The notes under the pieces: generated by a model | The model's database searches: none | What the model saw: the letters and a program-made list of their open reading frames with translations, nothing else | What the model was told of the DNA's origin: nothing | Source of the DNA: Patescibacteria group bacterium | GTDB lineage: Bacteria > Patescibacteriota > Minisyncoccia > UBA6257 > HR35 | Length of the DNA: 55,273 nt | Assembly (NCBI GenBank): GCA_036741875.1 | Contig: DAINRM010000002.1 | Span: 27,845-83,117 of the forward strand | Direction of reading: 5' to 3' | Part shown: positions 3,336 to 46,963 of the stretch, one piece after another | Position numbering within the stretch: the first letter of the stretch is position 1 | Layout: every line of letters starts with the position of its first letter | Made by a program: the position numbers and the translations under genes

Positions 3336-6300
3336 ATGTCCATTATTAAAAAGTCAACTTCAGAAATAGAAAGCTTAGTTTTAAAGATAGCTTCTCCTGA
3401 AGAAATTTTAAGTTGGAGTCATGGTGAAGTTTTAAAGCCAGAAACAATTAACTACCGAACTGGTAAACCAGATAGACAAGGTCTTTTTTCTGAAGTTATT
3501 TTTGGTCCCATGAAAGACTTTGAATGTTCTTGTGGAAAATATAAAAAACCTCAAGTTAGAGGTATTATATGTGAAAGATGCGGCGTAGAAGTCACCCATT
3601 CTTCAGTAAGAAAAGAAAGAATGGGACATGTTACTTTAGTTACTCCTGTTGCTCATATTTGGTATTTAAAAGTCTATCCTTATCCCTTAAAGATATTTTT
3701 AGACATACCCTTAAGAGATTTAGAAAGAGTTATTTATTATTCTGCTTATATTATTACTCGCGTTGATGAAGAAAAAAAGAATAAACTTTTAGAGGAGGTA
3801 GAAAAAGAATATAAAGAATTTTTAGCCCAAGCAGAATCAAAGGAAGAAAAAAAACAAAAACAAGAAATCTATAGGCAAATTAAAGAAGAACTTAACTCTT
3901 TAAAACCCAAGAAAGTTTTATCTGATGCTGAATACTTCTATTTTTCAAAAAAATATGCTGGTATTTTTGAGGTAGATATGGGTGCCGAACCGATTAGAAA
4001 GTTTTTGGAAGAGATTGATTTAGAAAAACTAAGAGAAGAAACTATTAAAAAATTAGCTAAAGCAGATTCTAAAGAAAAAAAGATTCTTTCTTTAAAACTA
4101 AAATTTATTAATGCCTTTATTAAATACGGAAGAAGACCAGAATGGATGATTTTAACTATTTTACCTGTCGTTCCCCCAGATATAAGACCAATTGTTCAGC
4201 TTAAAGAAGGAAAAATTGCCTCTTCTGATCTTAACGATCTTTATCGAAGAATTATTAATAGAAATAATCGTCTTAAAAGACTCATAGAAATTAAAGCACC
4301 AGAAATAATTTTGAGGAATGAAAAAAGAATGCTTCAAGAAGCTGTTGATGCTCTCCTTGACGCTTCTTTAAAAAAAGAAAAAATTGTTGTTGGACAAAGA
4401 AAAGTTCTTAAATCTTTGGGTGACCTTTTAAAGGGCAAAGAAGGAAGATTTAGGCAAAATCTATTAGGAAAAAGAGTTGATTATTCTGGAAGATCAGTAA
4501 TTGTTGTTGATCCTAATTTAAGAATCAATGAATGCAGTTTGCCTAAAAAAATGGCTTTAGAAATTTTTAAACCCTTTATTATCCATGAACTTCTTAAAGA
4601 AGGAATAGTCACTACTTCTAAAAGAGCTAATTATCTTATTGAAACGATGAGCCCAGAAGCTGTAGCTGCTTTAGAAAGAGTGATAAAAGATAAATACGTT
4701 CTTTTAAACCGTCCTCCTACTCTTCATAAGCTCAGCTTTTTAGCTTTTAAACCTATTTTAACTGAAGGTTTAGCTATTAAAATTCCACCCCTTGTTTGCT
4801 CTGGCTTTAATGCCGATTTTGATGGTGACCAAATGGGGTGTTTCTTACCGCTTTCTTCAGAGGCTCAAAGAGAAGCAAGAGAACTTATGAATGCTGCTTT
4901 AAATGTTTTAAGACCTGGTACAGGAATGGTTGAAGCTAGACCTGACAAGGATATGATCGCTGGTCTTTATTATTTAACTCTAGAAATTCCCAATCAAAAA
5001 GGAGAGGGAAAGGTTTTTAATGACGAAAAAGATGCCATTTTTGCTTATGAAAATAAAATAATAAGTCTTCAAGCAAAAATAAAAGTAAGAAAAGTAAAAA
5101 ATGAAGAAAATATTGAAACCACTGTAGGAAGAATAATTTTCAATCAAAATTTACCTTCAGACTTTCCTTTTGTCAATGAAGTTATAAATAAAAAAACTAT
5201 TAACCCTATTCTTCTTAAAATTTTAGAAATTTACGGAGTTGAAAGATTGAGCATTGTTTTAGACAATCTTAAAGAACTAGGTTTTAAATATGTAACTGAA
5301 GCCGGTATTACTTTAAGTATTAGTGATTTAGAATCACCTCCAAAACTTAAAGAAATTTTAGAAAAAGCTTTAGATGAGCATAATAAGGTTTTAGGGGCTT
5401 ATCATAATGGTTTCTTGAGTCGAGAAGAAAAAAACTTAAAACTTCAAGAAATTTGGGTCAAAGCTAAAGTAGAAATAGAAAAAGATATTAAAGAAAACAT
5501 TTCTGTAACTAACAATGCTAGATTGATGATAGATGCTGGAGCTAGGGGAAGCTATGATCAGTTAGCACAAATGATTGCTTTTAAGGGTGTGGTTAAAACC
5601 CCAACTAATGAACCAATAGACTTAGCTATTTCTCATTCTTATAAAACAGGGTTAACACCCTTGGAATATTTCAGCTCAACTCATGGAGCTAGAAAGGGTG
5701 TAGCCGATAAAGCACTAAAAACACCTCATTCAGGATATCTTACCAGAATTTTAGCTTCGGCACTCGATGATGTAATTGTAAGAGAAGTTGATTGCGGAAC
5801 TGAAGAAGGAATTCTTATCAGTCGAGAAGAGGTTCAAAGAAGAGGTGTAAGCTTTGGTGACTCTATTTTTTCCCGAACCGCTTTAGAAGATATTAAAAAT
5901 TCTCAAGGAGAAGTTATCGTGAAAAAAGGAGAATATATCACTTATGAGCTTTCTAGAATTATTGATAAAGAAAGCTCTATTTCTCAAATTAAAGTAAGAT
6001 CTGTTTTTACTTGTAAAACTCTTTATGGTGTTTGTCAAAAATGTTATGGTTTAGATCTTAGCACCCATAAACCTGTAAGACTTGGAGAAGCTGTTGGGCT
6101 TATTACTACACACTCTATTGGAGAAAGATTAACTCAATTCGTTTTAAGATCTTTCCATGCTGGCGGTGTGATTTCCGCAAAAGATATTACTCAAGATCTT
6201 CCAAGAATAAAGGAACTTTTTGAAGCTACTACACCTCGTTCTGAAGCAATCCTTTCCCCTATTAAAGGAAAAATTGTAGAAATTAGAGAATTTCCTAAAT

Positions 6301-11683: not shown

Positions 11684-12328
11684 ATGAAGGTAGAAAATAA
11701 TAAAATTTTTTTGTGGGTATTTATAGGGATAACTATTTTTTCTTTAATTTTTATGGGTTTTGTAAGTAGTTTTAGAATTGTAAAAAAAGAATATGATTTA
11801 AAAATTAGAGAAAACGATCATATTTTAGGTAACCCAGAAAAAGCAAAAGTAATTATTTATGAATATTCTGATTTTGAATGTCCTGCTTGTAAAGCTTTTT
11901 ATCCAATTGTTAAAAACCTAAAGGAAAAATATGGAGATGAAATTGCTGTTGTTTACAGACATTTTCCTCTAATCGAAATTCATCCTAAAGCTCTTTATGC
12001 TTCCCAGGCAGCGGAGTCAGCAGGAAAACAGGGTAAATTTTGGGAAATGCACGATCTCTTGTTTTCAAGACAAGATGAATGGAAAAATTCGCAAAATTTT
12101 AAAGAATTATTTATGAAATATGCTCAAGAACTTAATTTAGATCTTAAAAAATTTGAAGAAGACTATGAGAGTCAAGAAGTAAAAAATAAAATTTTGGAAG
12201 AAAGAAAAGAAGCTTTAAGTCTGGGTCTTAATAGTACGCCAAGCTTTTTTGTTAACAATCGCCTTGTCAATTTGACCTCTTTTGATTCCTTAGAAAAAGA
12301 AATAGAAAAAGAAATAGAAAATAAATGA
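11684..12328 (+). CDS. membrane-anchored DsbA-family thiol:disulfide oxidoreductase
   Basis: 214 aa with an N-terminal TM segment and a thioredoxin-fold CPAC active site (DFECPACKAF). Paralogous to 45116-45823. Confidence 0.85.
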   Translation: MKVENNKIFLWVFIGITIFSLIFMGFVSSFRIVKKEYDLKIRENDHILGNPEKAKVIIYEYSDFECPACKAFYPIVKNLKEKYGDEIAVVYRHFPLIEIHPKALYASQAAESAGKQGKFWEMHDLLFSRQDEWKNSQNFKELFMKYAQELNLDLKKFEEDYESQEVKNKILEERKEALSLGLNSTPSFFVNNRLVNLTSFDSLEKEIEKEIENK

Positions 12329-20054: not shown

Positions 20055-20579
20055 ATGGATCCTAAAAAAATAAATAACAATTTGGAATCTTTCGAAGAAT
20101 TTTATGTAATCGTTGAAATACCACAAGGTACAAGTGTTAAGTATGAGCTTGATAAAGAAACAGGTTTTTTAAAGGTTGATAGGTTTTTACATACAGCTAT
20201 GGTTTATCCTTTTAACTATGGTTTTATGCCTCATACTTTAGCTGATGATGGTGATCCTGTTGATGTTTTAGTAATTTGTGACCTTCCTGTTTTACCAGGA
20301 TCTCTTATAAAAGTAAAACCAATTGGAGTTTTAATTATGGAAGATGAAGCAGGTTTAGACGAAAAAATTTTAGCTGTTCCCGTTGAAAAAATTGATCCCA
20401 TTGAAGGTACCTATAAAAATATTAACGAAATTCCCGAGGCTATAAAAAATAAAATTAAGCACTTTTTTGAAAATTATAAAAGTTTAGAGCCAGGAAAATG
20501 GGTTAAAGTTAAAGATTGGCTTGATAGAAATGAAGCTATAAAAAGAATTGAAAAAGCATATAAAAATTTTAAAGATTAA
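20055..20579 (+). CDS. ppa: inorganic pyrophosphatase (family I)
   Basis: 174 aa with family I motifs ([27 protein letters not shown]). Confidence 0.94.
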
Positions 20580-21394
20580 TGCCTTTTTATGTTATTAAAA
20601 GCGATAAAACTAAAGAAGAATATAAAGAAGATAAGGTAATCTTTGCTCTAAAAAGAGCTAATGTTCCAGAAGAAGATATAGAAAAGATATTAAAAAAAAT
20701 AAAAGAAAATTTACCAAAAGTAGTGACAACTAAGGAGCTTTATAAATTTATTTTTGAAGAATTAAAAAAAGAAAAAAGAAGCACAGCTTATAGATTTAAT
20801 CTTAAAAATTCACTTTATCTTTTAGGACCTAGTGGCTATCCCTTCGAAAAATATGTGGCTCATCTTTTTAAAGAATTTGGATATTTTGCTAAACATAACC
20901 TAATTTTTAAGGGTTTTTGTTTAACTTATGAGATAGATCTTTTACTTGAAAAAGATGACGAAAAATTTTTAGGAGAATGTAAGTTTCACCAAGAAAAAGG
21001 TAAGAAGAATGATATTAAAACAGTACTTTACGCTTATGCCAGACATTTAGATATTTTGAAAATAAATAAAAATTATAAACTTCTTTTGGTTACCAACACT
21101 AAGTTTACTTCAGAGGCTATAGAGTTTGCTAAATGTTATTCTATTAATCTTCTTTCTTGGAATTTTCCTTCAGAAAAAAATTTGCCAAACCTTATAGAAG
21201 AAAAACGCTTTTACCCTTTAACTATTTTTGATTTTCTTTCTAAAAAGACACTTATCAGTCTTTTTAATTATGATATTGTTTCCATTAAAGATTTTTTAAA
21301 TAAAGATGATAACTATCTTAAAAAAATAAGCGGTTTAAATGAGAGGGAAATTAAGAATTTAAAAAGGATTATAGAGGAAATTTTAATGGTATAA
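20579..21394 (+). CDS. ATP-cone domain protein fused to an Mrr-like PD-(D/E)xK restriction-endonuclease domain
   Basis: 271 aa. N-terminal ATP-cone-like region (YVIKSDKTKEEYKEDKV...). Nuclease core GYPFEKYVAHLF...YEIDLLLEKDDEKFLGECK. C-terminal HhH-like ISGLNEREIKNLKRI. TAATG overlap with ppa. Confidence 0.65.
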   Translation: MPFYVIKSDKTKEEYKEDKVIFALKRANVPEEDIEKILKKIKENLPKVVTTKELYKFIFEELKKEKRSTAYRFNLKNSLYLLGPSGYPFEKYVAHLFKEFGYFAKHNLIFKGFCLTYEIDLLLEKDDEKFLGECKFHQEKGKKNDIKTVLYAYARHLDILKINKNYKLLLVTNTKFTSEAIEFAKCYSINLLSWNFPSEKNLPNLIEEKRFYPLTIFDFLSKKTLISLFNYDIVSIKDFLNKDDNYLKKISGLNEREIKNLKRIIEEILMV

Positions 21395-21405
21395 TAAAAA
21401 TGTAT

Positions 21406-21480
21406 GGTGGGCGTAGCTCAATTGGTTAGAGCGGAGGCCTGTGGAGCCTCAGGTTGCCGGTTCGAGCCCGGTCGCCCACC
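21406..21480 (+). tRNA. tRNA-His (anticodon GUG) with encoded G-1
   Basis: Manual cloverleaf: G-1, acceptor GTGGGCG/CGCCCAC, anticodon arm GAGGC-CTGTGGA-GCCTC, T-arm GCCGG-TTCGAGC-CCGGT, discriminator C. CCA is not encoded. Confidence 0.9.
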
Positions 21481-21482
21481 CC

Positions 21483-21511
21483 TTGACTTAAAATAATTGT
21501 AATGCTATAAT
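21483..21511 (+). promoter_or_regulatory. near-consensus sigma70 promoter for the secreted-protein island
   Basis: TTGACT at 21483-21488, exact 17-nt spacer, TATAAT at 21506-21511. It starts 3 nt after the tRNA-His 3' end. Confidence 0.5.
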
Positions 21512-21548
21512 ATAAATAAGTCTTAAATTAAACAATTTAAAATAAAAA

Positions 21549-22319
21549 ATGAAAAAATATTTTATTTTTATAATCCCCCTCTTTTTATTTTTTAATTTAT
21601 ATCAACTTGTTTTTGCAGGATATACACCGCCTTTTGGTGGAGAATATACTAATTTATGTGGATCTGGTACTAATGCAACTTTTTATTCCTGTTCTGCTGA
21701 TTGTAATATAAACGAAGGTAAATGTCGTGCTAGAAGCGGTGAGTGGATTTTTGTTTATACTTGTTCTGGAAGACAAATAGAATGTAGAAGTAATGAAGTT
21801 AAATTAGGTCCTGGAAACACTGCTTACGTTACAAATTATGCTTCTGTAGGTTCTGATAAAACTGTTCAAATAGATATTTTTAACAAAGATTGTCGAGCTG
21901 GAGGAGGTTGGTCTTGTGATAGTTCTAATTTAAAAGGTTATATAGTATGGTGGTCAGGAACTTCGGGTGGCGGCGGAGGTCAAATTCAATGTAATGAAAA
22001 CGAGGTTCAGCTTTCTGTTATTCCTAATCCTTCAAATGTTGGTGATTGGATAACTTTTAAGGTTACCGCAGGAGATGCTTCAACTTGGTGGAGAAATGAA
22101 TTTTCGGGTGGAGTCACAAATTGCACAGAAACTGTTTATGGTTGGGAAACAAAATGTAAGTCTTATACCTCAGGTACTTTTACGTGGACAAGATATTGGA
22201 AAAGATGTATTGGGGATATTAATAATTGTTCTCAAGAGTGCAGAAAATCTGTTAGTTTTACTATTAATAGATTGCTTCCTCCTGTAGTTATTACTTTACC
22301 ACCGGTCATTACTATTTAA
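21549..22319 (+). CDS. secreted Cys-rich protein with a degenerate PKD-like domain and PPVVITLPPVITI C-terminal tail
   Basis: 256 aa with a signal peptide (MKKYFIFIIPLFLFFNLYQLVFA), about 14 Cys and a Gly run. The segment PNPSNVGDWITFKV resembles the PKD domains of downstream paralogs. Confidence 0.8.
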   Translation: MKKYFIFIIPLFLFFNLYQLVFAGYTPPFGGEYTNLCGSGTNATFYSCSADCNINEGKCRARSGEWIFVYTCSGRQIECRSNEVKLGPGNTAYVTNYASVGSDKTVQIDIFNKDCRAGGGWSCDSSNLKGYIVWWSGTSGGGGGQIQCNENEVQLSVIPNPSNVGDWITFKVTAGDASTWWRNEFSGGVTNCTETVYGWETKCKSYTSGTFTWTRYWKRCIGDINNCSQECRKSVSFTINRLLPPVVITLPPVITI

Positions 22320-22335
22320 TCTTACTAGTTTAACC

Positions 22336-23016
22336 ATGAAGAGAGTACATATATTTCTAATAACCCCTCTTTTTTTAACAGGTCTTTTATTAACGCTTCA
22401 TCTTTCTCAAAATAATCAAACATTAGCACAAATTTCTTGTCCTTCTCAAACAACCTATGGTGATACGTGGGCAACTTTAGTTGGTGAAATTCAAGACAAC
22501 GGTGGTGATTCTAATATAACTGCTTGGTTTGAGTGGGGAACATCAAGTTTTTCACTTTCTAATACTACTCCTCAACAGTCGCTTTACGTTCCTAACACGC
22601 CATATAGATTTTGTGATCAGATTACAGGTTTAACGCCTTGTAGAACTTACTATTATAGAGCTGCGGCAAGAAACTCTGCCGGAACATCTAGAGGAACTGT
22701 TTATTCTTTCAGAACTCATTGTGCTCCCCTTCAAGTTTCATGCCATGCTTCACCTAATCCAGCTAATGTAGGTCAAACGGTTGTTTTTACTGCTAATGTT
22801 AGCGGAGGAACAGGAACATATTCTTATGTTTGGTCTGGTGCTTGCAGCGGTTCTTCTTCAACATGTTTTAGATCTTTTTCTTCTCCAGGAACTTATACAG
22901 CTACAGTGACTGTAACTTCAGGAAATCAATTTCAATCTGCTTCTTGCTCAGTGACCGTTAACCAACTAATACATCCACCAGTAGTTATTACTTTACCGCC
23001 AGTCACCACTTTATAA
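22336..23016 (+). CDS. secreted Fn3-like + PKD-domain protein with PPVVITLPPVTTL C-terminal tail
   Basis: 226 aa with a signal peptide. Fn3-like module (ATLVGEIQDNGGDSNITAWFEWGTSS...YYYRAAARNSAGTSRG) and PKD-like module (SPNPANVGQTVVFTANVSGGTGTYSYVW). Paralog of 23511-24914. Confidence 0.85.
   Translation: MKRVHIFLITPLFLTGLLLTLHLSQNNQTLAQISCPSQTTYGDTWATLVGEIQDNGGDSNITAWFEWGTSSFSLSNTTPQQSLYVPNTPYRFCDQITGLTPCRTYYYRAAARNSAGTSRGTVYSFRTHCAPLQVSCHASPNPANVGQTVVFTANVSGGTGTYSYVWSGACSGSSSTCFRSFSSPGTYTATVTVTSGNQFQSASCSVTVNQLIHPPVVITLPPVTTL
22456..22541 (+). repeat. near-identical paralog block 1, copy A (partner 23610-23695)
   Basis: About 86 nt with 4 mismatches by eye against copy B. Flanking sequence is much more diverged. 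Confidence 0.8.
22792..22898 (+). repeat. near-identical paralog block 2, copy A (partner 23946-24052)
   Basis: About 107 nt with about 5 mismatches by eye against copy B. Confidence 0.8.
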
Positions 23017-23029
23017 AAATTAATTGAGA

Positions 23030-23443
23030 ATGAAAAAAATTTTAACATTTTTTACTTTAACCATATTTGTTTTTTCAAGATTTGTTTTTGCTGAAACATG
23101 TCCGCCCAAAACAACAGCTGGTAGAAATTATATTGATTTTGTAGGTAAGTTAGAAGGTCTTGGAGGAGATGAAAAAGTTATTGTTTGGTTTGAATATGGA
23201 CTAAAAAAAGAAAATTTAAATAAAAAGACAAGAGAATTAGAAGTTAGAGAGCCTAAAATCTTTTGTTTAAGAGAAAAAAATCTTAAACCTTGTAGGGTTT
23301 ATTATTACCGTGCTGCCGCAAAAAATTCTGCTGGTACAAATTACGGTGAAATCAAAAGCATAAAAACCTTATGTGGAAAATCTTTAGAAAATAAAACTAA
23401 TCAAAATAAAATAGAAAAAATAATTAAATGGATAATTTTTTAA
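23030..23443 (+). CDS. secreted single Fn3-like module protein (divergent paralog)
   Basis: Start moved to ATG 23030 (MKKILTFFTLTIFVFSRFVFA signal peptide). Shares the family core VWFEYG...CRVYYYRAAAKNSAGTNYG. Confidence 0.75.
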   Translation: MKKILTFFTLTIFVFSRFVFAETCPPKTTAGRNYIDFVGKLEGLGGDEKVIVWFEYGLKKENLNKKTRELEVREPKIFCLREKNLKPCRVYYYRAAAKNSAGTNYGEIKSIKTLCGKSLENKTNQNKIEKIIKWIIF

Positions 23444-23446
23444 CTA

Positions 23447-23475
23447 TTGACATTTTTAAATTTTTATTTTATAAT
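23447..23475 (+). promoter_or_regulatory. consensus sigma70 promoter for the 23511 gene
   Basis: TTGACA at 23447-23452, exact 17-nt spacer, TATAAT at 23470-23475. Confidence 0.5.
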
Positions 23476-23510
23476 TAAAATATAATTAAATTAAATTGCG
23501 TAATTCAAAA

Positions 23511-24914
23511 ATGGTTTTCAAAAAAAAATTAATAGTAACAATTCTATTTTTAGTTTTGTTTTTCTTTGGATATGAAGTTTTTGCTCAATCTTGTCCAGCT
23601 AATACCCAATATGGTGATACATGGGCAACTTTAGTTGGTGAAATTCAAAACAACGGTGGTGATCCTAATATAACTTCTTGGTTTGAGTGGGGAACTTCTT
23701 CAAGTTTAGGAAACCAAACATCACCACAAAATCTTTACGTTGCTTCAGTTCCTTACAGATTTTGTGCTCAAATTTCAGGTCTTCAACCATGTCAAACATA
23801 TTATTACCGAGCTGTTTCAAGAAATTCTGCTGGAACAAATTATGGACAAACTTATTCTTTTAGAACTCAATGTGGAGCTCAACTTTACGTTTCTTGTTAT
23901 GCTTCACCTAACCCAGCTAACTTAAATCAAACAGTAACTTTTTACGCTAATGTTAGCGGAGGAACAGGAACATATTCCTATTCTTGGTCTGGTGCTTGCA
24001 GCGGTTTTTCTTCAACATGTTCTATATCTTTTTCTTCTCCAGGAACTTATACTGTTAACTTAACAGTAACATCTGGAAATCAGACACAATCTGCTTCTTG
24101 TTCGGTTAATGTTTCTTCTGGACAATCATTTCCTATTACTACAAATCAACCCCCAGTTCCTGTAATTGCTTTTGCACCTGATACGATTCTTCCAGGAACA
24201 ATTGTTACTTTTGATGCTTCTAATTCTTATGATCCTGATGGCTATATTGTGTTTTATGAATGGAGAGTTAATAATGTAATCGCTTCTACAAATAAAACCT
24301 TTTCTCGAGCTTTAGCTTCAGGAACGTATAGAATAAAACTTACTGTTACCGACAATCAAGGAGCTTCAGCATCTAAAGAAATTCTTATAAATGTTGGTAG
24401 AAACGTTTTTGTAACAAGAACAAGAGTTGTTACTCAAAATGTACCCGTATTAACTTCTCAAGTTAGATTAGTTGACATTCTTTTAGACTCTTCTTATCTT
24501 GTTTATGCTTGCGAAAAAAATGAAATTCAAGTTACTTTAGTTAATAATACTTCTGTCAATAGAAAGGTTACTTTGATTGCTTATGGTGATACTGAAAACT
24601 GGTTTAAACCTAATCCTAAGGTGCTAATATTAAAACCTCGTTCTACAACTTTAGTTAAATGGGAAGTAAATCCTAACTGTGATGTAAGAGAAGGAATTTA
24701 CACTTTTAAGATAAATCTTACTACTCCAGGAGGTAATTATGATAATGAGGGAATTTTAGAAGTGAAAACAAGAAATAATTTCTTTTCACCTCTTTTAGGT
24801 TTTATAGGAGGTTTATTACAGAATTTTTGGCTTTTACTCCTTCTTCTTTTAATTCTTCTTATAAATATTTATATGTGGTATAGATTTTTAAAGAGAAAGG
24901 AAGAAACTAAATAA
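23511..24914 (+). CDS. surface-anchored multidomain protein: signal peptide, Fn3-like, two PKD, CARDB-like domain, C-terminal TM anchor
   Basis: Start taken at ATG 23511 (MVFKKKLIVTILFLVLFFFGYEVFA). The second PKD domain has the canonical motif FDASNSYDPDGYIVFYEW. The C-terminus is LLQNFWLLLLLLLILLINIYMWY followed by RFLKRKEETK. Confidence 0.85.
   Translation: MVFKKKLIVTILFLVLFFFGYEVFAQSCPANTQYGDTWATLVGEIQNNGGDPNITSWFEWGTSSSLGNQTSPQNLYVASVPYRFCAQISGLQPCQTYYYRAVSRNSAGTNYGQTYSFRTQCGAQLYVSCYASPNPANLNQTVTFYANVSGGTGTYSYSWSGACSGFSSTCSISFSSPGTYTVNLTVTSGNQTQSASCSVNVSSGQSFPITTNQPPVPVIAFAPDTILPGTIVTFDASNSYDPDGYIVFYEWRVNNVIASTNKTFSRALASGTYRIKLTVTDNQGASASKEILINVGRNVFVTRTRVVTQNVPVLTSQVRLVDILLDSSYLVYACEKNEIQVTLVNNTSVNRKVTLIAYGDTENWFKPNPKVLILKPRSTTLVKWEVNPNCDVREGIYTFKINLTTPGGNYDNEGILEVKTRNNFFSPLLGFIGGLLQNFWLLLLLLLILLINIYMWYRFLKRKEETK
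23610..23695 (+). repeat. near-identical paralog block 1, copy B (partner 22456-22541)
   Basis: See copy A. Confidence 0.8.
23946..24052 (+). repeat. near-identical paralog block 2, copy B (partner 22792-22898)
   Basis: See copy A. Confidence 0.8.
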
Positions 24915-24919
24915 AAAAT

Positions 24920-26128
24920 TCATTCTTCAAGCATTTTCCAAAGTTTCTTAGGTTTTATAAGAGGAAATCTTAGAGATTCTAATTCACTTATTTCTTTGGG
25001 TTCATTTTCAGCTCCTTTGCTTTTTATCAAAATCAAGGGAAGAGGACCCCAAAGATGTTTTCCTGTTTTTGTGTCAGTTATATGGTCACCTGTAATAACA
25101 TAGACGGGGTCCTCTTTCTTTTTTATTTCTAAAAATAATTTTTTAAACCAATTATCAAAAAATTCAAAAAATTCTTTTTTCTTTTGAAAATTTTTATCAT
25201 GACTAGCCTCATCAGCTTCTTTTAAGTGTATATAAAGAAGATCGTAATTTTTTAAATTTTCTAAAATTTTTTCAAAATAAAAAATATATCTTTTTTTAAT
25301 ATCCTCTATTTCAGGTAAAGTTAAAGCATTAAAACCTGCCAATTTACATCCTCCTTTTAGAGCACCGTTTTCAGCTATCACCAAGCCATTTTTTATTTTA
25401 TTTATTTTAAAGAAATTTTTAAGTTTTGGAAATTTATTTCCCGCTTCTCTTGTTAAAAGAAAATTTGCTGGAAGAAAACCCCTTTTTATTCTTTTCTTAT
25501 TAACATCGCTTTTCTTTAAAATTTCATGCGTTAAAAGTAAAAATTTCCATAAAATTTCTGCTGTGTAGATAGATTTTTTATCTTTAGAAAGAGGTATTAT
25601 TTTTTTTACTTTTTTATTTTTTTCGTAAGGATCAGAATCTGAAATTTTTTCTGAAAGATTTTCTTTGAAAACTAAAACTCCTCGATGACCATAAGTGTGA
25701 TAGAATTTAAATGGTACTTCAAATTTTAGATTATTGATTTCTTTGCTTAATTTATCTAAACCGTAAAAGTTTCTTCCTGCTCTTCTGTCCAAAACAATTA
25801 AATTTTCATTAACAGAAGCAAAATCGACTCTTAAAGCTAACTCTCCTTCTTTATAATCTACATCGCTTCCTAAAGCTTCGAAAGGGCCTCTTTTAAATTC
25901 TTTTGGTTTTACTTTATATCCCAAAATACCTAAATTGGCTAATCCTGTAACACTTCTTTGGCCTAATTTAGGCCAATAATTTTTTTCTAATGGTAAAAAT
26001 CTAAAAAGAGATAAAATTTTTTCTTTTAATAATTTTTCTAAAAATTCTTTTTTGGCTAATCTAAGAGGAGTAAATTTTTGTGGCTTATCAGAAAATCCAT
26101 CAATTATAAAAAATAAAATCCTTGCCAT
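24920..26128 (-). CDS. apgM: cofactor-independent phosphoglycerate mutase, archaeal type (alkaline-phosphatase superfamily)
   Basis: 402 aa with an N-terminal metal-site motif ILFFIIDGFSD, HLKEADEASHD and VITGDHITD, typical of the ApgM family. Confidence 0.78.
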   Translation of the reverse strand: MARILFFIIDGFSDKPQKFTPLRLAKKEFLEKLLKEKILSLFRFLPLEKNYWPKLGQRSVTGLANLGILGYKVKPKEFKRGPFEALGSDVDYKEGELALRVDFASVNENLIVLDRRAGRNFYGLDKLSKEINNLKFEVPFKFYHTYGHRGVLVFKENLSEKISDSDPYEKNKKVKKIIPLSKDKKSIYTAEILWKFLLLTHEILKKSDVNKKRIKRGFLPANFLLTREAGNKFPKLKNFFKINKIKNGLVIAENGALKGGCKLAGFNALTLPEIEDIKKRYIFYFEKILENLKNYDLLYIHLKEADEASHDKNFQKKKEFFEFFDNWFKKLFLEIKKKEDPVYVITGDHITDTKTGKHLWGPLPLILIKSKGAENEPKEISELESLRFPLIKPKKLWKMLEE

Positions 26129-26142
26129 TTTATTTTATTTTA

Positions 26143-26151
26143 TGGTATAAT
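26143..26151 (+). promoter_or_regulatory. extended -10 (TGgTATAAT) upstream of rpmJ / the alpha operon
   Basis: TG at 26143-26144, TATAAT at 26146-26151. rpmJ ATG at 26196. Confidence 0.35.
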
Positions 26152-26195
26152 TTTAAATATTCTCTTCCTTGCCATTTTTATTTTATGTTTAAAAA

Positions 26196-26309
26196 ATGAA
26201 GGTTAAACCATCAATCAAAAAAAGGTGTCGTAAATGTAAAATTGTTAAAAGAGGGGTTTACCGTTATGTTATTTGTGAAAACCCCAAACACAAACAAAGA
26301 CAAGGATAA
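26196..26309 (+). CDS. rpmJ: 50S ribosomal protein L36
   Basis: 37-aa ORF absent from the track (below the length cutoff): [37 protein letters not shown]. The stop abuts the rpsM ATG. Confidence 0.92.
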
Positions 26310-26702
26310 ATGACCAGAATAGTAGGAGTAGATCTTCCAGATAATAAAAGAATTATTTTTGCTCTTCCTCGAATTTACGGAATAGGTTTTTCTTTGGCTA
26401 AAAAAATTTGTTTAGAGACCAAAATTGATCCTATGAAAAGAGTTGGTGAACTTACACCTGAAGAAATTAATAGAATTGAAAAGTATATAGAAAAAAATTT
26501 TAAAGTTGAAGGAGATTTAAGAAGAGAAGTTCAGGCCAACATTAAAAGACTTATTGATATTAACTGTTATAGAGGTATTCGACATGTTAAGAAACTTCCT
26601 GTAAGAGGTCAAAGGACAAGATCAAATGCCAGAACAAGAAAAGGTCCTCGTAAGACAGTAGCTACCGGTGCTCGAAGAAAAGCCGGTGCTGGTAAGAGAT
26701 AA
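26310..26702 (+). CDS. rpsM: 30S ribosomal protein S13
   Basis: 130 aa. [14 protein letters not shown] and [24 protein letters not shown]. Confidence 0.95.
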
Positions 26703-37212: not shown

Positions 37213-39345
37213 ATGCCACGTCTTTACCCTATTGAAAAAACAAGAAATATAGGAATTATTGCTCATATTGATGCTGGAAAGACAACAACTACAGAAAGGA
37301 TTTTATATTATACAGGAATTTCCCATAAAATTGGAGAAGTTCATGAAGGAACTACTGTGACTGATTGGATGCCACAAGAAAGAGAAAGGGGTATTACTAT
37401 TACTGCTGCAGCAGTCACGTGTTTTTGGACGCAAAGTTATTTAAAACAAGCAGAAACAAGGGAAGAAAGAATTAAAGGAGAATATAAAATAAACATTATT
37501 GATACTCCAGGACATATAGATTTTACTGCTGAAGTTGAAAGATCTTTAAGAGTTTTAGATGGAGCCGTGGTTTTATTTGATGCTGTTCAAGGTGTTGAAG
37601 CTCAATCAGAAACAGTTTGGCATCAAGCTGATAAATATAAAGTGCCAAGAATTTGTTTTATTAATAAAATGGATAAAATTGGAGCTGATTTTGAAGATGC
37701 TTTAAATTCAATCTATGAAAAGCTTACGAGAAACGCTGTTCCTGTTTGTATCCCCATAGGTAAAGAAGAAAATTTTAGAGGAGTGATAGATTTGATTACT
37801 ATGAAAGAAGTTTATTTTGAAGGAGAAAAAGGAGAAAAAGTTATTTATAAAGAAATTGATCCTTCTTTAGAAAGCTATGCTCAAGAATGGAGAAATCATA
37901 TGTTGGAAAAATTAGCTGAAAGTGATGAAATTTTTATGGATAAATATTTTTCTGGAGAATTTAATGAAGATGATATTAGAAAAGCTATAAGAAGAGCTTG
38001 TATTAATTATCTTTTTATTCCTGTTTATTGTGGTTCTGCTTTAGATAACAAAGGTGTTCAACTTGTTTTAGATGGTGTGCTTGATTTTCTGCCTTCACCA
38101 ATTGATTTGCCTCCAGTTAAAGGTATCAATCCAATTACAGGAAGTGAGGAAATAAGAAAAGCTGATGACAACGAACCATTTTCAGCTCTTATTTTTAAAA
38201 TTATGGTTGATCCTCATGTCGGTACTCTTTCTTATTTTAGAATTTATTCTGGTACTTTAAAATCAGGAACAACAGTTTTAAATACTTCTACGGGGGAAAC
38301 TTATAGAATAGGAAGAATAGCTAGAATGCATGCTAATCATCGTGAAGAAGTAGATGAAATGTTTGCTGGAGATATCGGAGCGATTGTTGGAGGAAAGGAT
38401 CTAAAAACTGGAGATACTATTTGTGATCCTAAACATCCTATTATGTTTGAAAAAATCCAATTTGCTGAACCTGTAGTTTGGATGAAAGTTGAACCAAAAA
38501 CAAAAGCCGATCAAGAAAAAATGGGTTTAGCCCTTAAAGCGTTAGCCGATGAAGATCCAACCTTTAAAGTAGCTGTTAATCAAGAAACAGGAGATACGTT
38601 AATTGGTGGTATGGGAGAACTTCAGCTTGAAATTATGGTTGATAGGCTCAGAAGAGAATTTAAAGTAGATGTTAATATAGGTAAACCCCAAGTTGCTTAT
38701 AAAGAAACCATTACCCAAGTTGTTGAAAGAGTTGAAGGTAAATACATAAGACAAAGCGGTGGTAGAGGACAATACGGACATGTTATTGTTAGACTGGAAC
38801 CACTTGAAAGAGGAAAGGGTTTTGAATTTGTTAACGCTATTAAAGGAGGTATTATTCCTGATAATTTTATTCCTTCGGTGGAAAAAGGAATTAAAGAAGC
38901 TATGGAAAAAGGAGTTATTGCTGGCTATCCGGTAACAGATATAAGAGTAATTTTATATGATGGTTCTTATCATGAGGTTGACTCTTCTGATATCGCTTTT
39001 AAAATTGCTGGTGCTATTGCTCTTCAAGAAGGGGTTAAACAAGGAAATCCTGTACTTCTTGAACCTATAATGAAAGTAGAGGTCACTGTTCCTTCAGAAT
39101 TTGTTGGTGATGTTACTGGTGATCTTTCATCTCGAAGGGCTCGAATTGAAGAAGTTATTGATGAAGAAAAAGTTAAAATTATTCATGCTAAAGTGCCCTT
39201 AGCAGAGATGTTTGGATATGTAACTGTTTTAAGATCTTTAACCCAAGGAAGGGGTTCTTTCTATATGGAATTTTCACATTATGAAGTGGTACCACCACAA
39301 ATCAGAGAAGAAATTCTTCGTTTGAGAAATAATGTCAAAATCTAA
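37213..39345 (+). CDS. fusA: translation elongation factor G
   Basis: 710 aa with GTPase motifs [14 protein letters not shown] and NKMD, plus EF-G domains IV/V. Confidence 0.96.
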
Positions 39346-39769
39346 AGCTCAACTTCTTTTGGAAGTTGTTTTAATCTTAGGTTTGATAACAATTATTCTC
39401 GGTATTTTCGCTTCCGCTCTTGTTCTTTCTTTTAATGCTCTTCGTTATAGTAATATAAGCCAAGACATTACTATCTACGGTTTTGAAAAATACAGAAACG
39501 CTCTTTTTGATATTGCTCAAAGAAATTTCAATTATTTAAATTCACTTTCAACAACTACAGATTATTTTTTGACTTCAACAATTTCTGGTTGGCAAATTGT
39601 TCTAGGTAAGGAAAGTGTTAAATCTGGTTTAGAAGAATATTTTTTTAGTTTTAGAATTGATAATTTTCAAAACAATCCTGATGTAAAATTAATAAAAGTA
39701 ACAGGGGAATCTCAAAATATTATTTTTAACGATTATTTTCTTATACCTAAACTGAATGTTAGCTTTTAA
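39332..39769 (+). CDS. type IV pilin-like (pseudopilin) protein
   Basis: 145 aa with the class III signal-like N-terminus [17 protein letters not shown] (Glu at +5, Ala at -1). Overlaps the fusA 3' end by 14 nt. Confidence 0.6.
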
Positions 39770-40664
39770 AAAAGGTTTAACTCTTTTAGAAGTAGTTATT
39801 TTTTTGGGTGTTTTTTCAATTGTCGGCCTTATTGTTTTTCCTCTTCTTATTAATACTTTAAATTTTTATCAAGGAACTGTTGGAGAAGTAGATGTTTCTC
39901 GTGAGGCAAGAAATTTAATACTTACTTTTCAAAAAGAAGCTTATAAAAGTAAAAATATAAACTTCATCACCGACTATGAGCTTCTTTTTGAAAAATTTAA
40001 TGGAGATAAATCTATTCTTTTTCGAACCTCTCCTGTTTTTTTAAATTTTGAATCTTCTACTTTAGAAGGAATGATAAGCAATATAAGAATAGGCTCTGTA
40101 AGTCTTAAAGGAGAAAATTATTCTGTAAAATTTATAAACTCTTCATCTTGTCTTATTTCTTCAGGCAATTCAGTGACTTCGCTTTATGCTCTTTCAGATT
40201 ATGCTTGGTCACCTCAACTTGGTTGGATAAGTTTTAGAAACTCTTCCGGAGAAAGCATTGTTTACGGAGTTTGTATTACCTCTAGTACTCAACCAGAACT
40301 TAGAGGTTATGCTTATAATGATATTATTGGCTTTATAGTTTTTAATTGTTTAGATTTAGGTGTTTGTTCTTCAAGTAATTTTAAAGTTGAGTTAGTAGAA
40401 GGAAAATATTTACAAGGTTTTGCTTGGAATGATATTTTAGGTTGGCTCTTTTTTGATGGACCTCGAGGACAAGTTTACTTGGCTGAATTGGACAGTAATT
40501 ATAATTTAAAAAAAATTTTCCGAATTGTTGATAAAAGAATTAATGTTAAAAACTTAAGTTTTCAAAAATTAAATGGTTCTTATAAAACCTCCTTTACCAT
40601 AAGTGACGAAACTAATAAAAAGGAAGTTAGTTATGAAACAGCTATTAGTTTACCTTTTAAATAA
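39756..40664 (+). CDS. type IV pilin-like protein with three GW-type repeats
   Basis: 302 aa with the prepilin N-terminus [18 protein letters not shown]. Three copies of the G(Y/F)AW-x4-GW(I/L)-x-F motif. Confidence 0.75.
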   Translation: MLAFKKGLTLLEVVIFLGVFSIVGLIVFPLLINTLNFYQGTVGEVDVSREARNLILTFQKEAYKSKNINFITDYELLFEKFNGDKSILFRTSPVFLNFESSTLEGMISNIRIGSVSLKGENYSVKFINSSSCLISSGNSVTSLYALSDYAWSPQLGWISFRNSSGESIVYGVCITSSTQPELRGYAYNDIIGFIVFNCLDLGVCSSSNFKVELVEGKYLQGFAWNDILGWLFFDGPRGQVYLAELDSNYNLKKIFRIVDKRINVKNLSFQKLNGSYKTSFTISDETNKKEVSYETAISLPFK

Positions 40665-41066
40665 ATGAAAAAAGGACAAATTTTGTTAGGTTTTTTAGGT
40701 ATAATCTTGATTTTTTTTAGTTTTTTAGTTATAATAGTACTAAATTATCTTTCTTTTTCTTATAACTTATCATTCATTTTTCAAAGAAACATTTCTTTAA
40801 AATCTTTAGAAATAAGCGGTTTACGTTATGCCTTATATAGAATTAATCAAGATAGAGATTTTACTACGACTTCAATGCAAATAAACCTGCCACAAGGTTA
40901 CGTTGATATTTCTATTACTACTACTTCTTTAAGCTCTAATTTAAGGCTTATTTCTTTAACTTCAACTCTTACTTCAACAGCTATATCTAAAAATCTTTTC
41001 GCTACCGCTACTATTGATATAAGCTCAGCAAGTTCAACTATTTTAAACTTAGAGGTGTCAGATTAG
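40665..41066 (+). CDS. minor pilin-like protein lacking Glu+5 (PilX/GspK-like)
   Basis: 133 aa. N-terminus MKKG/QILLGFLGIILIFF, with a Ser/Thr-rich C-terminal part. Confidence 0.5.
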   Translation: MKKGQILLGFLGIILIFFSFLVIIVLNYLSFSYNLSFIFQRNISLKSLEISGLRYALYRINQDRDFTTTSMQINLPQGYVDISITTTSLSSNLRLISLTSTLTSTAISKNLFATATIDISSASSTILNLEVSD

Positions 41067-44873: not shown

Positions 44874-45119
44874 TTATTCTAAAGCTTCTCTAAGAGAAAG
44901 AGGATCGTAGCCAATAATTAATTTTTCTTTTCCGTTTTCATCAATAATTAAAGTGACAGGAACACCCATTTGACCAGATTTTTCTATAAGTTCTTTTTCC
45001 CACTGAGGATTTACTTCCACATTTCTTTCTTCATAAAAGTAACCTAAACCTTCTAAGAACTTTTTTGTTTTTTGACACCAAGGACACCAGCTGGTAGTAT
45101 AAATAATTATTTTTTTCAT
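44874..45119 (-). CDS. glutaredoxin/NrdH-like small redoxin
   Basis: 81 aa with a CPWC active site and a GVPVT cis-Pro loop. Confidence 0.85.
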   Translation of the reverse strand: MKKIIIYTTSWCPWCQKTKKFLEGLGYFYEERNVEVNPQWEKELIEKSGQMGVPVTLIIDENGKEKLIIGYDPLSLREALE

Positions 45120-45823
45120 TTCTCGATAATGTTTTTAAATTCAGAAATTAATTCAGGAACAAAGCCTGCCCCTTGATAAACCTTTCCATTTTTAATTATA
45201 AAAAACGTTGGTGTGCCTTCAACTCCGTAACTACTTCCTTCAGCAATATCTTTATTTATATCAGACTCGTATTTTTTCTCTTGAAGACAAGTTTTAAATT
45301 TTTCTTCATTTAATCCTAGGCGAGAAGCTAAATTTAAAAGATATTCATCACTACCAGTAAAGAAATAGTCTCTTCTTTCATTCATAGCTTTAAAGACTTC
45401 CTTATAAACTTCTTTATGAAATTCCCAATATTTTCCTTCTTCATTAGCACATCTTGAAGCTAAATGGACCTTTTTAGCTTGAGGATGAATACCTTCTAAA
45501 GGAAAGTCTCGAAAATAAAAAACAACTTTTTGTAAAAAAATATATTTTTCAAGCTCAGGATAAAGATAATTAGCTGCTAAAGCACAAAAGGGGCAGTGAA
45601 AATCACCAAATTCTACTATTTTTACTTCGGCGCCTTCAAAACCTAAAGGAGGCAAATTGCCTAAATTTACATTTAAATTAACTTCTTGAAAAAAATTGTT
45701 TTTAGATTCCTCTTGTTTGTTTAAATTAGTTAAAGAAACATTCTTTAAAAGAAAATAAGATCCCAAAGATAAAATCAAAATAGTGGTTCCCAAGTAAACA
45801 AGGTTTTTGTAATTTTCTCCCAT
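45116..45823 (-). CDS. membrane-anchored DsbA-family thiol:disulfide oxidoreductase
   Basis: 235 aa with an N-terminal TM segment and a CPFC active site (DFHCPFCALA). ATGA-type overlap with the redoxin gene. Confidence 0.85.
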   Translation of the reverse strand: MGENYKNLVYLGTTILILSLGSYFLLKNVSLTNLNKQEESKNNFFQEVNLNVNLGNLPPLGFEGAEVKIVEFGDFHCPFCALAANYLYPELEKYIFLQKVVFYFRDFPLEGIHPQAKKVHLASRCANEEGKYWEFHKEVYKEVFKAMNERRDYFFTGSDEYLLNLASRLGLNEEKFKTCLQEKKYESDINKDIAEGSSYGVEGTPTFFIIKNGKVYQGAGFVPELISEFKNIIEK

Positions 45824-45870: not shown

Positions 45871-46341
45871 TTAAAATTCCAAACAAGTAGAAGTTGTTGA
45901 AAGAAAAGGAGAAGAACTTGTAGGTATACAAAGATATTTTATCTCATTGGTTAAATTATTTTTTATAGAAATAATAGTGCTTATTGAAGGAACACCATTA
46001 AATTTAGAAAATTTTACTGAAAGAGTACTATTTTCTGCTGGATTTAAAAAACTGAATCTTTTATTCATAGTAAGTTGATAATAAATATTAGTAGGAGATC
46101 CTTTATAAAGAAGAACGTAGTCTGTTGAAGTATTAACAAAACTTACTCCCCAATCACTATTTTCTTCTCCTAAAATTGCTTTTTCTCGTGCTGTTTTTAC
46201 TAAATCTAAAATTCTTTTGTTTGTTTCTTCAAAGAGAAAATTCATTTGGCTTATTTGATTAAAATAATAAAAACCAAAACCTAAAATAATAGAAATAATA
46301 ATTAAAACTAAAAGTGTTTCAAAAAGAGTAAATCCACTCAT
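45871..46341 (-). CDS. type IV pilin (prepilin-type N-terminal cleavage/methylation domain)
   Basis: 156 aa. MSG/FTLFETLLVLIIISIILGF carries canonical G-1, F+1 and E+5. Confidence 0.8.
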   Translation of the reverse strand: MSGFTLFETLLVLIIISIILGFGFYYFNQISQMNFLFEETNKRILDLVKTAREKAILGEENSDWGVSFVNTSTDYVLLYKGSPTNIYYQLTMNKRFSFLNPAENSTLSVKFSKFNGVPSISTIISIKNNLTNEIKYLCIPTSSSPFLSTTSTCLEF

Positions 46342-46363: not shown

Positions 46364-46963
46364 ATGTTAAAAGATATTCTTTTTTTAGATATTTATTATC
46401 CTTTCAGTCTTCTTTTTTTAATTTTAAGCTTTTTATCTTATTTTTTCAAAGAGGAAAAAAGAATAAACTACTTGAGTCTTCTTTTAGTTTCTCTTATTTT
46501 TACTTTTCTTTTTTATTCTTTCTTTCTTTCTTTTCTTCAATATCTTATTTGGAAAAATAATAATTTCTCAAAATTTCTTTTACCACCTTATACCCCAATT
46601 TCTTATTTTTTAAATTATGCTTTTTTTATTTTTTTTCGAGATTTTATTTTTAGACTTTTTGGTTTTTTACTTGTTTTTGTTTTTCTTTATCTTATTTTTT
46701 TTATTTTGAAACGAGATCCATTTTATGATGATGAAAAATACTTTATTCTCATTTCCTCTCTCTTTTTTTCTTTTCCCTATAATTTCTTCTTTATTTCTTT
46801 TTCTTTTTTTATACTATTATTAATGGCAACTTTATCTATTTTTTTTAAAGAAGAAAAGTATTATTCGTTTAGATTTTTTTGGCTTATTTTAAGTTTTTTA
46901 CTTTTAATTTTAGAAATCCCGCTTTATAAAAAATTCTTCTTTCTTGTCCAAATAAAACCATGA
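46364..46963 (+). CDS. hypothetical polytopic membrane protein coupled to pilB
   Basis: 199 aa, Phe/Leu-rich, about 5-6 TM segments. Internal repeat LS(Y/I)FFKEEK at aa 24-32 and 157-165. ATGA overlap with pilB. Confidence 0.6.
   Translation: MLKDILFLDIYYPFSLLFLILSFLSYFFKEEKRINYLSLLLVSLIFTFLFYSFFLSFLQYLIWKNNNFSKFLLPPYTPISYFLNYAFFIFFRDFIFRLFGFLLVFVFLYLIFFILKRDPFYDDEKYFILISSLFFSFPYNFFFISFSFFILLLMATLSIFFKEEKYYSFRFFWLILSFLLLILEIPLYKKFFFLVQIKP

Follow-up and report, generated by a model that had tools for sequence, protein, structure and literature searches.

A conserved, transferable C-terminal peptide in a cassette of four predicted Ig-like surface-protein genes of a Patescibacteria group bacterium

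Patescibacteria presumably spend their lives attached to other cells, but apart from type IV pili few of their attachment structures are defined. Among the surface systems described elsewhere, TasA/TapA of Bacillus subtilis and the archaeal bundling pili are grouped with the chaperone-free donor-strand filaments. The WxL/Csc clusters of Lactobacillales encode several secreted proteins with a short C-terminal module for non-covalent retention, together with an adjoining membrane-anchored partner. Within Patescibacteria, transposon sequencing (Tn-seq) of Southlakia epibionticum, a cultured member of the only lineage that is genetically tractable (Saccharibacteria), revealed that epibiotic growth depends on several adhesins, one of which has an Fn3 domain (PMC10633639). 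Here we analyzed a cassette of four consecutive genes, designated P1 to P4, located immediately downstream of tRNA-His in a 55,273-nucleotide (nt) stretch of the genome of a Patescibacteria group bacterium (contig DAINRM010000002.1 of assembly GCA_036741875.1; hereafter the window, in which positions are counted from its first nucleotide). P1 and P2 end in a conserved, transferable C-terminal peptide (hereafter the tail), which is linked to an anchored partner with an Fn3-like module. This peptide was not part of the initial annotation of the window, and we found no description of the cassette in the literature on donor-strand or Fn3/PKD surface systems in Patescibacteria. We tentatively propose, with somewhat less than even confidence, that the operon encodes parts of one membrane-anchored, disulfide-stabilised, immunoglobulin (Ig)-like structure of the cell surface.

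P1 (256 amino acids (aa); 21549..22319, + strand) and P2 (226 aa; 22336..23016, +) end in PPVVITLPPVITI (22278..22316, +) and PPVVITLPPVTTL (22975..23013, +), respectively, and both tails run up to the stop codon. All P1 and P2 orthologs terminate in P-x-V-(I/V)-T-L-P-(P/A)-(V/I)-x-T-(L/Y), directly followed by the stop codon, and this tail is the most conserved element among P1 orthologs. Further, the tail was kept where the preceding domain had been lost (P1 of L003 (KatS3mg096), which consists of the head and the tail, 157 aa), where a different Ig-like domain had been swapped in for the PKD domain (P2 of L004, L006 and L007) and where the preceding domain was doubled (P0131); here and below, three-digit L handles denote loci and four-digit P handles denote proteins of relatives. 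Within one genome, the tails of P1 and P2 often differ at the last residue (Y versus L or H). The DNAs encoding the P1 and P2 tails are 81% identical at the nucleotide level. Among 33 distinct tail DNAs, a set that was partly ascertained through the motif itself, the fixed tail residues each use several synonymous codons, which indicates that selection acts on the peptide.

Some other identities of the tail were considered and rejected. A DNA element or a ribosome-binding site for the next gene does not agree with codons that vary synonymously under a fixed peptide. A PDZ class-I ligand would have the invariant Thr at -2, whereas the tail has it at -1, and an LPXTG variant was rejected because PxTG is missing. 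No tripartite sorting signal (LPXTG, PEP-CTERM or GlyGly-CTERM) was detected on the tails, which are not followed by a transmembrane (TM) segment and gave no match to an NCBIfam sorting domain.

When 241 million metagenome records were scanned with the DNA pattern of the tail, 47 stretches were recovered, and the real open reading frames (ORFs) among them all came from this type of cassette. Wherever downstream sequence exists, the gene after the tail genes encodes an Fn3 protein that is anchored in the membrane at its C-terminus. A wider clade has three genes. The product of gene 1 (289 aa) combines a different head with an Ig-like domain and the tail, and in that of gene 2 (218 aa) an Fn3-like module is followed by an Ig-like domain and the tail. 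The product of gene 3 (430-441 aa) has an Fn3-like module and an Ig-like domain, then DUF11 and a TM helix that leads into a cytoplasmic helix. The TM helix of the 420-441-aa proteins was missed by a strict filter; it was found by a looser scan and is visible in the sequences. An independent test was provided by two tail-bearing proteins of distant Patescibacteria, P0176 and P0179, which were found by homology to the P1 head alone and chosen without reference to the tail or P4. Both are encoded in a cassette of a head-tail protein, an Fn3-Ig-tail protein and an Fn3 protein with a TM segment, in this order.

The P1-head family comprises 252 clusters at 50% identity. Its members have four kinds of endings, and the tail is found in about 10 of 145 members. 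Another kind is the classical sortase signal, (Q/T/L)PxTG followed by a TM segment and a basic tail. Further endings (P0165-P0309) are a TM helix followed by (F/Y)(I/L)W(Q/E)xR(E/Q)F, and CxxV(K/R)F(K/R/Q)F at the extreme C-terminus. In these comparisons, the tail occupies the place that is held by membrane or wall anchors in relatives. The heads differ among lineages while the tail stays, as expected for a tip subunit. In L022 (Parcubacteria GBS-2), the head of the first cassette gene (5104-5862) consists of CGNG(I/V)CESGETCSNCSIDCGSCGP repeats and is unrelated to the P1 head of the window; this gene ends in a variant tail, PPTVITKGAVVTY.

Many relatives of the P1 head are classical sortase substrates, and the tail could accordingly be read as a recognition signal for a sortase-like transpeptidase or protease, which would link P1 and P2 covalently to the wall or the following subunit, as in sortase-assembled pili. 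Directly upstream of the cassette, L022 (3353-3964), L120 (1956-2579), L128/L130 (L130 1405-2052) and L136 (1-540) carry a sortase gene (PF04203, E = 5e-15 and 6e-22). Further, the invariant Thr of the tail, with one residue after it and a variable position before it, loosely resembles the x-T-G of the sortase motif. However, neither the 55-kb window nor the 6-7 kb around the cassette in L001-L012 yielded a sortase, and the tail lacks PxTG as well as a retention segment, be it TM or basic. More obvious sortase clients are the wider-clade anchored proteins, which carry PTG and a TM segment. In addition, the sole Lys of P2 is K2, inside the signal peptide, so that mature P2 is Lys-free and lacks the nucleophile for a pilin-type isopeptide bond. 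We consider an enzymatic signal of this kind quite unlikely. As to the anchored proteins of L127 (3580-4872, -), L130 (3630-4955), L022 (6649-8541) and L135 (1845-3566), V(A/L)G(I/V)AT-x-(V/I/Q/A)PTG(L/V) precedes the TM helix and an amphipathic segment, KS(R/H)I(L/I)K(W/F)EEWLD, follows it; P4 of the window has neither the PTG-type motif nor this segment.

The initial annotation described four consecutive signal-peptide genes after tRNA-His, and this description was confirmed. The tRNA-His(GTG) gene (21407..21482, +; detected using ARAGORN) is the conserved upstream neighbour of the cassette. P3 (23024/23030..23443, +) encodes 139 aa from the start at 23024 or 137 aa from the ATG at 23030, and P4 (23496/23511..24914, +) encodes 472 aa from the TTG at 23496 or 467 aa from the ATG at 23511; residue numbers of P4 are counted from the TTG. 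The N-termini of P1-P4 are of the Sec type by pattern, with basic residues and a hydrophobic core followed by VFA-G, LA-Q, VFA-E or VFA-Q, and the putative signal segments were helical in the AlphaFold2 (AF2) models of P1 and P4. Lipoprotein anchoring was rejected, as no lipobox could be read before the conserved N-terminal Cys. Recoded stops or one long split gene were also rejected, because every gene encodes a separate signal peptide and stops at TAA, with the orthologs terminating at the same position.

Two near-consensus promoters had also been proposed, and both were recovered in a consensus scan. Site 1 (TTGACT-N17-TATAAT with a TG extension; 21483..21511, +) matches 11/12 consensus positions and is a candidate for P1-P2-P3, and site 2 (TTGACA-N17-TATAAT; 23447..23475, +) matches 12/12 and is a candidate promoter for P4. 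An equivalent of site 1, TTGACA-N17-TA(T/A)AAT, is present at the same position after the tRNA in six relatives, and the position of site 2 is kept in L001, L002 and L009, and in L003 with TAGAAT. Because the total count of promoter-like matches across the region equals chance expectation, positional conservation is better evidence of function than the consensus match. The cassette encodes four proteins with predicted Sec export, and these would be expressed from two conserved, predicted sigma70-type promoters (one for P1-P2-P3 and one for P4). No terminator-like site was detected after P3 or P4 in a scan of 20500-26500; the sole terminator-like hairpin in this interval (25958-25976, +) lies within apgM, which is encoded on the minus strand.

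All four proteins had been described as built from the same two modules. This holds for P2 and P4. In P2, an Fn3-like module (~residues 33-129, nt 22432-22722, +) and a PKD domain (~residues 135-210, nt 22738-22965, +) lie between the signal peptide and the tail. P4 comprises an Fn3-like module (residues 31-126, nt 23586-23873, +), PKD1 (residues 131-207, nt 23886-24116, +), PKD2 (residues 217-300, nt 24144-24395, +), a beta-sandwich designated D4 (residues 323-425, nt 24462-24770, +) and a TM helix (residues 444-462, nt 24825-24881, +), which is followed by a short basic cytoplasmic end. P2 and P4 are 70.6% identical over 194 aa in a pairwise alignment that spans the Fn3-like plus PKD unit. 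P3 is about 40% identical to P2 and to P4 and has the Fn3-like module only, between its signal peptide and a Lys-rich linker, and it terminates in WIIF (nt 23429-23440, +). In the P3 family, 16 of 21 homologs end in (K/N/D)W(I/F/V)(I/V)F at the stop codon, the Lys-rich linker before this end ranges from 9 to about 70 residues, and the P3 equivalents of L007, L022 and P0164 have a TM anchor in place of the WIIF end. P1 did not fit the description. Its signal peptide (residues 1-23) is followed by a distinct Cys-rich beta-sandwich head (~residues 24-137, nt 21618-21959, +) instead of an Fn3-like module and by a divergent PKD-like domain (~residues 147-240, nt 21987-22268, +). The similarity between P1 and P2 is restricted to the C-terminal 125 residues (31% identity). 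A Pfam search of P1 gave no match, and its domain 2 resembles PKD at the profile level only (hhalign against PKD1 of P4, 97% probability).

The PKD domain (PF00801/PF18911) of P2 exceeded the gathering score (28 bits; cut-off 23.5), and P4 matched PKD_4 with 67.9 bits in two stretches, that is, with two PKD domains. Sequence matches to PKD in the PDB were collagenase PKD domains (E = 5e-18), with ColG/ColH as the nearest solved relatives. The Fn3-like modules of P2, P3 and P4 matched PF16656 (Pur_ac_phosph_N) below the Pfam threshold (13-27 bits; cut-off 30), and scores of 26-30 bits are obtained when the grafting test described below is included. These matches begin at profile position 17-24, suggesting that the canonical first strand of the module is not recognisable. 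The Fn3-like module of P4 was modelled by AF2 as a confident beta-sandwich with six clear strands. The whole P4 model (predicted local distance difference test (pLDDT) 79.5) contains four beta-sandwich domains and the TM helix, and the P1 model (pLDDT 87.5) contains two beta-sandwiches and an extended tail. A fold search of the PDB with the P4 model returned generic multi-Ig proteins only. The P1 model matched nothing below E = 1e-3 in the PDB and BFVD, and the P1 profile had no match among PDB sequences. D4 was a confident beta-sandwich in AF2 without a significant match to a profile hidden Markov model (HMM). Among the extras that had been assigned to the last gene, the second PKD domain and the TM anchor, which only P4 carries, were upheld. 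The CARDB-like label lacked HMM support, as PF07705 gave no match at E<=1 for P4 or for isolated D4. In the anchored proteins of the wider clade, the position equivalent to D4 is occupied by DUF11.

The modules had been reported to be bracketed by Cys, and these residues (C33/C90/C99/C126, C134/C168/C175/C202 and C339/C395) are invariant in 22 P4 orthologs. In the anchored proteins of L127 and L130, C33 and C90 are kept and the equivalents of C99 and C126 are both lost. This joint loss suggests that C33 pairs with C90 and C99 with C126 in predicted disulfides. The window also encodes the two DsbA-like oxidoreductases that had been noticed in it. One is a thioredoxin-fold protein with an N-terminal TM segment and CPAC (11684..12328, +; PF13462 E = 5e-29, PF01323 E = 1e-17), and the other possesses a TM segment and CPFC (45116..45823, -; PF13462 E = 1e-22, PF01323 E = 6e-18). 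Because both are encoded in the window, they are plausible partners for the cassette disulfides and candidates for their oxidants. These results support the view that P1-P4 are exported, disulfide-rich, Ig-like surface proteins, of which P4 alone has a membrane anchor.

An alternative arrangement of such proteins is a lattice resembling an S-layer. By analogy with SlaB/SlaA, P4 would then be the membrane stalk and P1/P2 the canopy, and there would be no fibril or adhesin. All domains of the cassette are Ig-like, as in several S-layer proteins, SbsB was among the fold matches, and the near-consensus conserved promoters suggest high expression. Residues 340-458 of P4 gave a weak match to a putative S-layer model of NCBIfam (E = 0.005, far below the cut-off). 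However, the matches are generic or sub-threshold and the proteins are small. Further, the P1 head is lineage-variable and, as L010 and L006 lack P1, optional, a pattern more in keeping with a tip adhesin than with a lattice unit. We regard a lattice of this type as very unlikely.

P2 and P4 have recombined with each other. Within genomes (L002, L008, L009 and L011), the identity between P2 and P4 in the segments corresponding to 22435-22959 and 23589-24113 was 42-93%, whereas orthologs of P2 or P4 were approximately 70-75% identical between those genomes. The intragenomic identity of up to 93% suggests recurrent gene conversion. Two contigs differ in gene content. L109 (5127-7950) carries a 1161-bp tandem duplication with the order P1, P2, P3, P2', P3', P4, and L116 (4960-6399, -) carries a deletion that leaves P1 and a P2/P4 hybrid. 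The two contigs would be the reciprocal outcomes of an unequal crossover at the P2 and P4 repeats, and either could be an artefact of repeat assembly. In L007 (6066-7004 and 7001-8173), the P3 homolog carries a near-identical copy of P4 D4 and the TM anchor instead of WIIF, and P4 lacks PKD1, which is another product of recombination within the cassette.

When P1 domain 2 and the tail were aligned with P4 using hhalign, they matched a stretch from PKD1 through the linker to the first strand of PKD2 (97% probability, E = 3e-11), with VVITLPPVITI opposite PVPVIAFAPDTIL of P4. This alignment suggests that the tail is an orphan first strand of a PKD domain, from which it probably derives. The homology of the tail with this linker and strand of P4 is also what we would expect if P1-P4 were independent surface or secreted proteins, produced by duplication and truncation of a P4-like gene and not assembled with each other, in which the tail caps or stabilises the last domain. 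In line with this explanation, P2 corresponds to the N-terminal half of P4, the two genes continue to recombine, and a chimera of the tail and the Fn3-like module scored no differently from scrambled controls (see below). On the other hand, the tail is placed directly on the Cys-rich head in L003, P0179 and P0173 and on other Ig-like types in L004, L006, L007 and L127. Such transfer to unrelated upstream domains is unexpected of a domain-specific cap. The tail is also more conserved than the equivalent linker of P4, which varies in length and sequence. Independence would further leave unexplained why the tail genes are linked to an anchored Fn3 gene in all loci with downstream sequence. Accordingly, we judge this explanation unlikely.

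In the surface assembly that we propose, the tail would serve as a docking peptide after export and oxidation, the latter possibly by the DsbA-like proteins. It would probably add a strand to the Fn3-like module common to P2, P3 and P4, which is the best candidate for the docking site because it is the only domain common to all anchored partners across clades. P4, with a TM helix and an acceptor only, would be the base or stalk. P2, with both acceptor and donor, would be the shaft, docked on P4, perhaps on itself, and possibly repeated. P1, in which the lineage-variable head is combined with a donor tail only, would take the distal position and act as the head. P3 may be a second, short base subunit that is kept at the membrane by the Lys-rich linker and the WIIF end. 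The homogenisation of the N-terminal modules of P2 and P4 (to 93%) would keep the acceptor sites alike. The natural variants, in which P1 is absent (L010 and L006), P2-P3 are duplicated (L109) or P1 remains with a P2/P4 hybrid (L116), are consistent with this assembly, and so are the differing last residues of the P1 and P2 tails within a genome and the lack of a recognisable first strand in the Fn3-like match. The anchors that replace the tail in relatives of the P1 head, and WIIF in three P3 equivalents, also agree with it. Its likely role would be contact with a host cell or substrate, and adhesion to either is plausible.

A more specific version is that the products form a surface fibre of a previously undescribed kind. 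Ordinary Fn3/PKD subunits exported through Sec would self-assemble by inserting the C-terminal strand VITLP(P/A)VxT(L/Y) into the next Fn3-like module, with P1 as the head, P2 as the shaft and P4 as the TM base, and the fibre would serve to reach or hold the host cell. It would require no chaperone, usher, ATPase or, in this clade, sortase, and each lineage would fit its own heads to a tail common to all. We consider this version rather unlikely.

Several points weigh against the proposed assembly. When the tail was grafted before the Fn3-like module, the Pfam score was 30.6 bits (+0.6), compared with 29.2-30.0 bits for two scrambled controls. The AF2 model of P1 leaves the tail extended, with moderate confidence. 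The tail could simply remain from a PKD domain that was truncated, and could be kept because it aids folding or stability. The term adhesion is a generic reading, by analogy, of Ig-like surface proteins. Finally, the sortase beside the cassette in four loci of the wider clade may point to an enzymatic role.

The initial annotation regarded the locus as an accessory island and as a variable module. We found full-length P4 orthologs down to ~43-44% identity, and the gene order was the same in L001, L002, L003/L011, L004/L012, L006, L007, L008, L009 and L010, including relatives with P4 identities of 85, 76, 69, 50 and 43%. The gene products in these relatives are, in order, about 260, 225, 130 and 470-500 aa. 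Besides the window, the cassette is located 3' of tRNA-His in seven loci (L001, L002, L007, L008, L009, L010 and L109), and in L001, L002 and L007-L010 it is beside the same block of NusA, pyrophosphatase and ATP-cone/Mrr genes. Full-length P4 was found in 5 of 185,579 species-representative genomes, all five of which are metagenome-assembled genomes of Paceibacteria/Parcubacteria. Among the relatives recovered (down to 43% P4 identity), none had an empty tRNA-His site. The gene order is kept across these relatives, and some of the proposed variability is real, namely the gene conversion between P2 and P4 and the single duplication and deletion contigs. Synteny in distant relatives, which the annotation itself had named as counter-evidence, is largely what we observed.

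An island integrated at tRNA-His, horizontally acquired and strain-variable, would agree with the adjoining tRNA, the higher GC content of P1 and P2, the copy-number variation in two metagenomic contigs and the presence of the intact cassette at another genomic site in L003, L004 and L006 (KatS3mg096, KatS3mg097 and JAUQQN01). However, the linkage to tRNA-His is kept down to ~45-50% protein identity. The GC content at third codon positions (GC3) of P1-P4 is 0.13-0.17, which is native to the window (background 0.151+-0.022). The excess GC of P1 and P2 sits in codon position 2, suggesting a composition rich in Gly, Ser, Thr, Pro and Cys rather than foreign codon usage. The earlier statement that the locus is K/E-poor and less AT-rich than its surroundings is correct as to the higher GC of P1 and P2 but not for P3, which has 14.4% K, 8.6% E and a GC content of 0.26. 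The cassette proteins are 82-86% identical to those of the closest relative, compared with 95-97% for NusA, pyrophosphatase and RpoA; their divergence is similar to that of the M23 peptidase, ATP-cone and M16 genes and runs parallel to that of flanking genes. The integration scars that had been suggested, repeats of a tRNA-His 3' fragment, were not detected: the 21-nt 3' end of the tRNA occurs once in the 55-kb window, with 3 mismatches allowed, and a repeat search of the window recovered only the paralogy of P2/P4 and of the tails. No integrase or mobility gene was found between the flanking housekeeping genes, where P1-P4 are the only ORFs of at least 100 aa. The island is therefore largely refuted, and we consider it highly improbable. 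We conclude that the locus is a vertically inherited, conserved, lineage-specific surface-protein operon of a Paceibacteria/Parcubacteria lineage.

The neighbours of the cassette encode NusA, pyrophosphatase, an ATP-cone/Mrr-like protein, apgM and rpsM. The ATP-cone/Mrr-like gene (20579-21394), just 5' of tRNA-His, is a fusion of an ATP-cone, an Mrr-type restriction-endonuclease core and an AF1548-like C-terminal domain, and it adjoins the cassette in relatives too. Elsewhere in the window, candidate components of type IV pili are encoded. Three consecutive pilin-like ORFs with hydrophobic N-termini are located at 39332-41066, and only the middle one has a weak N_methyl match. A prepilin-like gene (45871-46341, -) lies beside the second DsbA-like gene, and two ORFs at 46960-49907 are putative T2SSE and T2SSF genes, as judged from the annotation of relatives.

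The cassette is a testable candidate for attachment, in which a tag of 10-13 residues may be enough to mount different heads on an anchored stalk. If the tag is a docking peptide or donor strand, it would represent a new way in which monoderm bacteria assemble surface structures, and the combination of a tail and an adjacent anchored Fn3 gene would be a handle by which uncultured genomes could be searched for host-contact proteins. Otherwise, the cassette would be an ordinary lineage-specific family of PKD/Fn3 surface proteins.

Several described systems resemble the cassette in part. Like the tandem surface proteins with PKD and Fn3-like (PF16656-type) domains, P2 and P4 hold bona fide PKD domains, but the cassette splits the domains over several genes with conserved terminal peptides instead of joining them in one long polypeptide. 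The Saccharibacteria adhesins are likewise patescibacterial surface proteins that include Fn3, and no tail or cassette was described there. The cassette differs from the WxL/Csc clusters in lineage and folds; it has no WxL domain, and the match to the host-binding domain of the WxL-interacting protein was sub-threshold (E = 0.0017).

Sortase-assembled pili of monoderm bacteria resemble the proposed assembly in having an anchored base, a shaft and a tip that varies, each built of Ig-like domains, and a sortase adjoins the cassette in other Patescibacteria clades. In contrast to pilins, P1, P2 and P3 have no LPXTG-type signal, TM segment or basic tail and no match to an NCBIfam sorting signal, mature P2 has no pilin Lys, and the window has no sortase. 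The donor-strand filaments, such as the archaeal threads (Saci_0406/0405), are similar in that small beta-sandwich subunits are exported through Sec with signal peptides of the signal peptidase I type, in that a short conserved gene cluster lacks a dedicated assembly ATPase, and in that the subunits carry a conserved terminal strand-like extension. A member of the thread cluster that has the extension but no acceptor was proposed as the cap (PMC9715654), and this candidate resembles P1, which has a donor and no acceptor. The two differ in that the candidate donor is C-terminal in the cassette whereas the donor is N-terminal in the filaments, and in that the cassette has canonical Fn3/PKD folds with disulfides and one TM-anchored subunit. 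Further, a filament and an incomplete acceptor fold are predictions in the case of the cassette. Membership in either group is not established; in their logic, the donor-strand filaments are the closest known system, and the sortase-assembled pili are the other close analogue.

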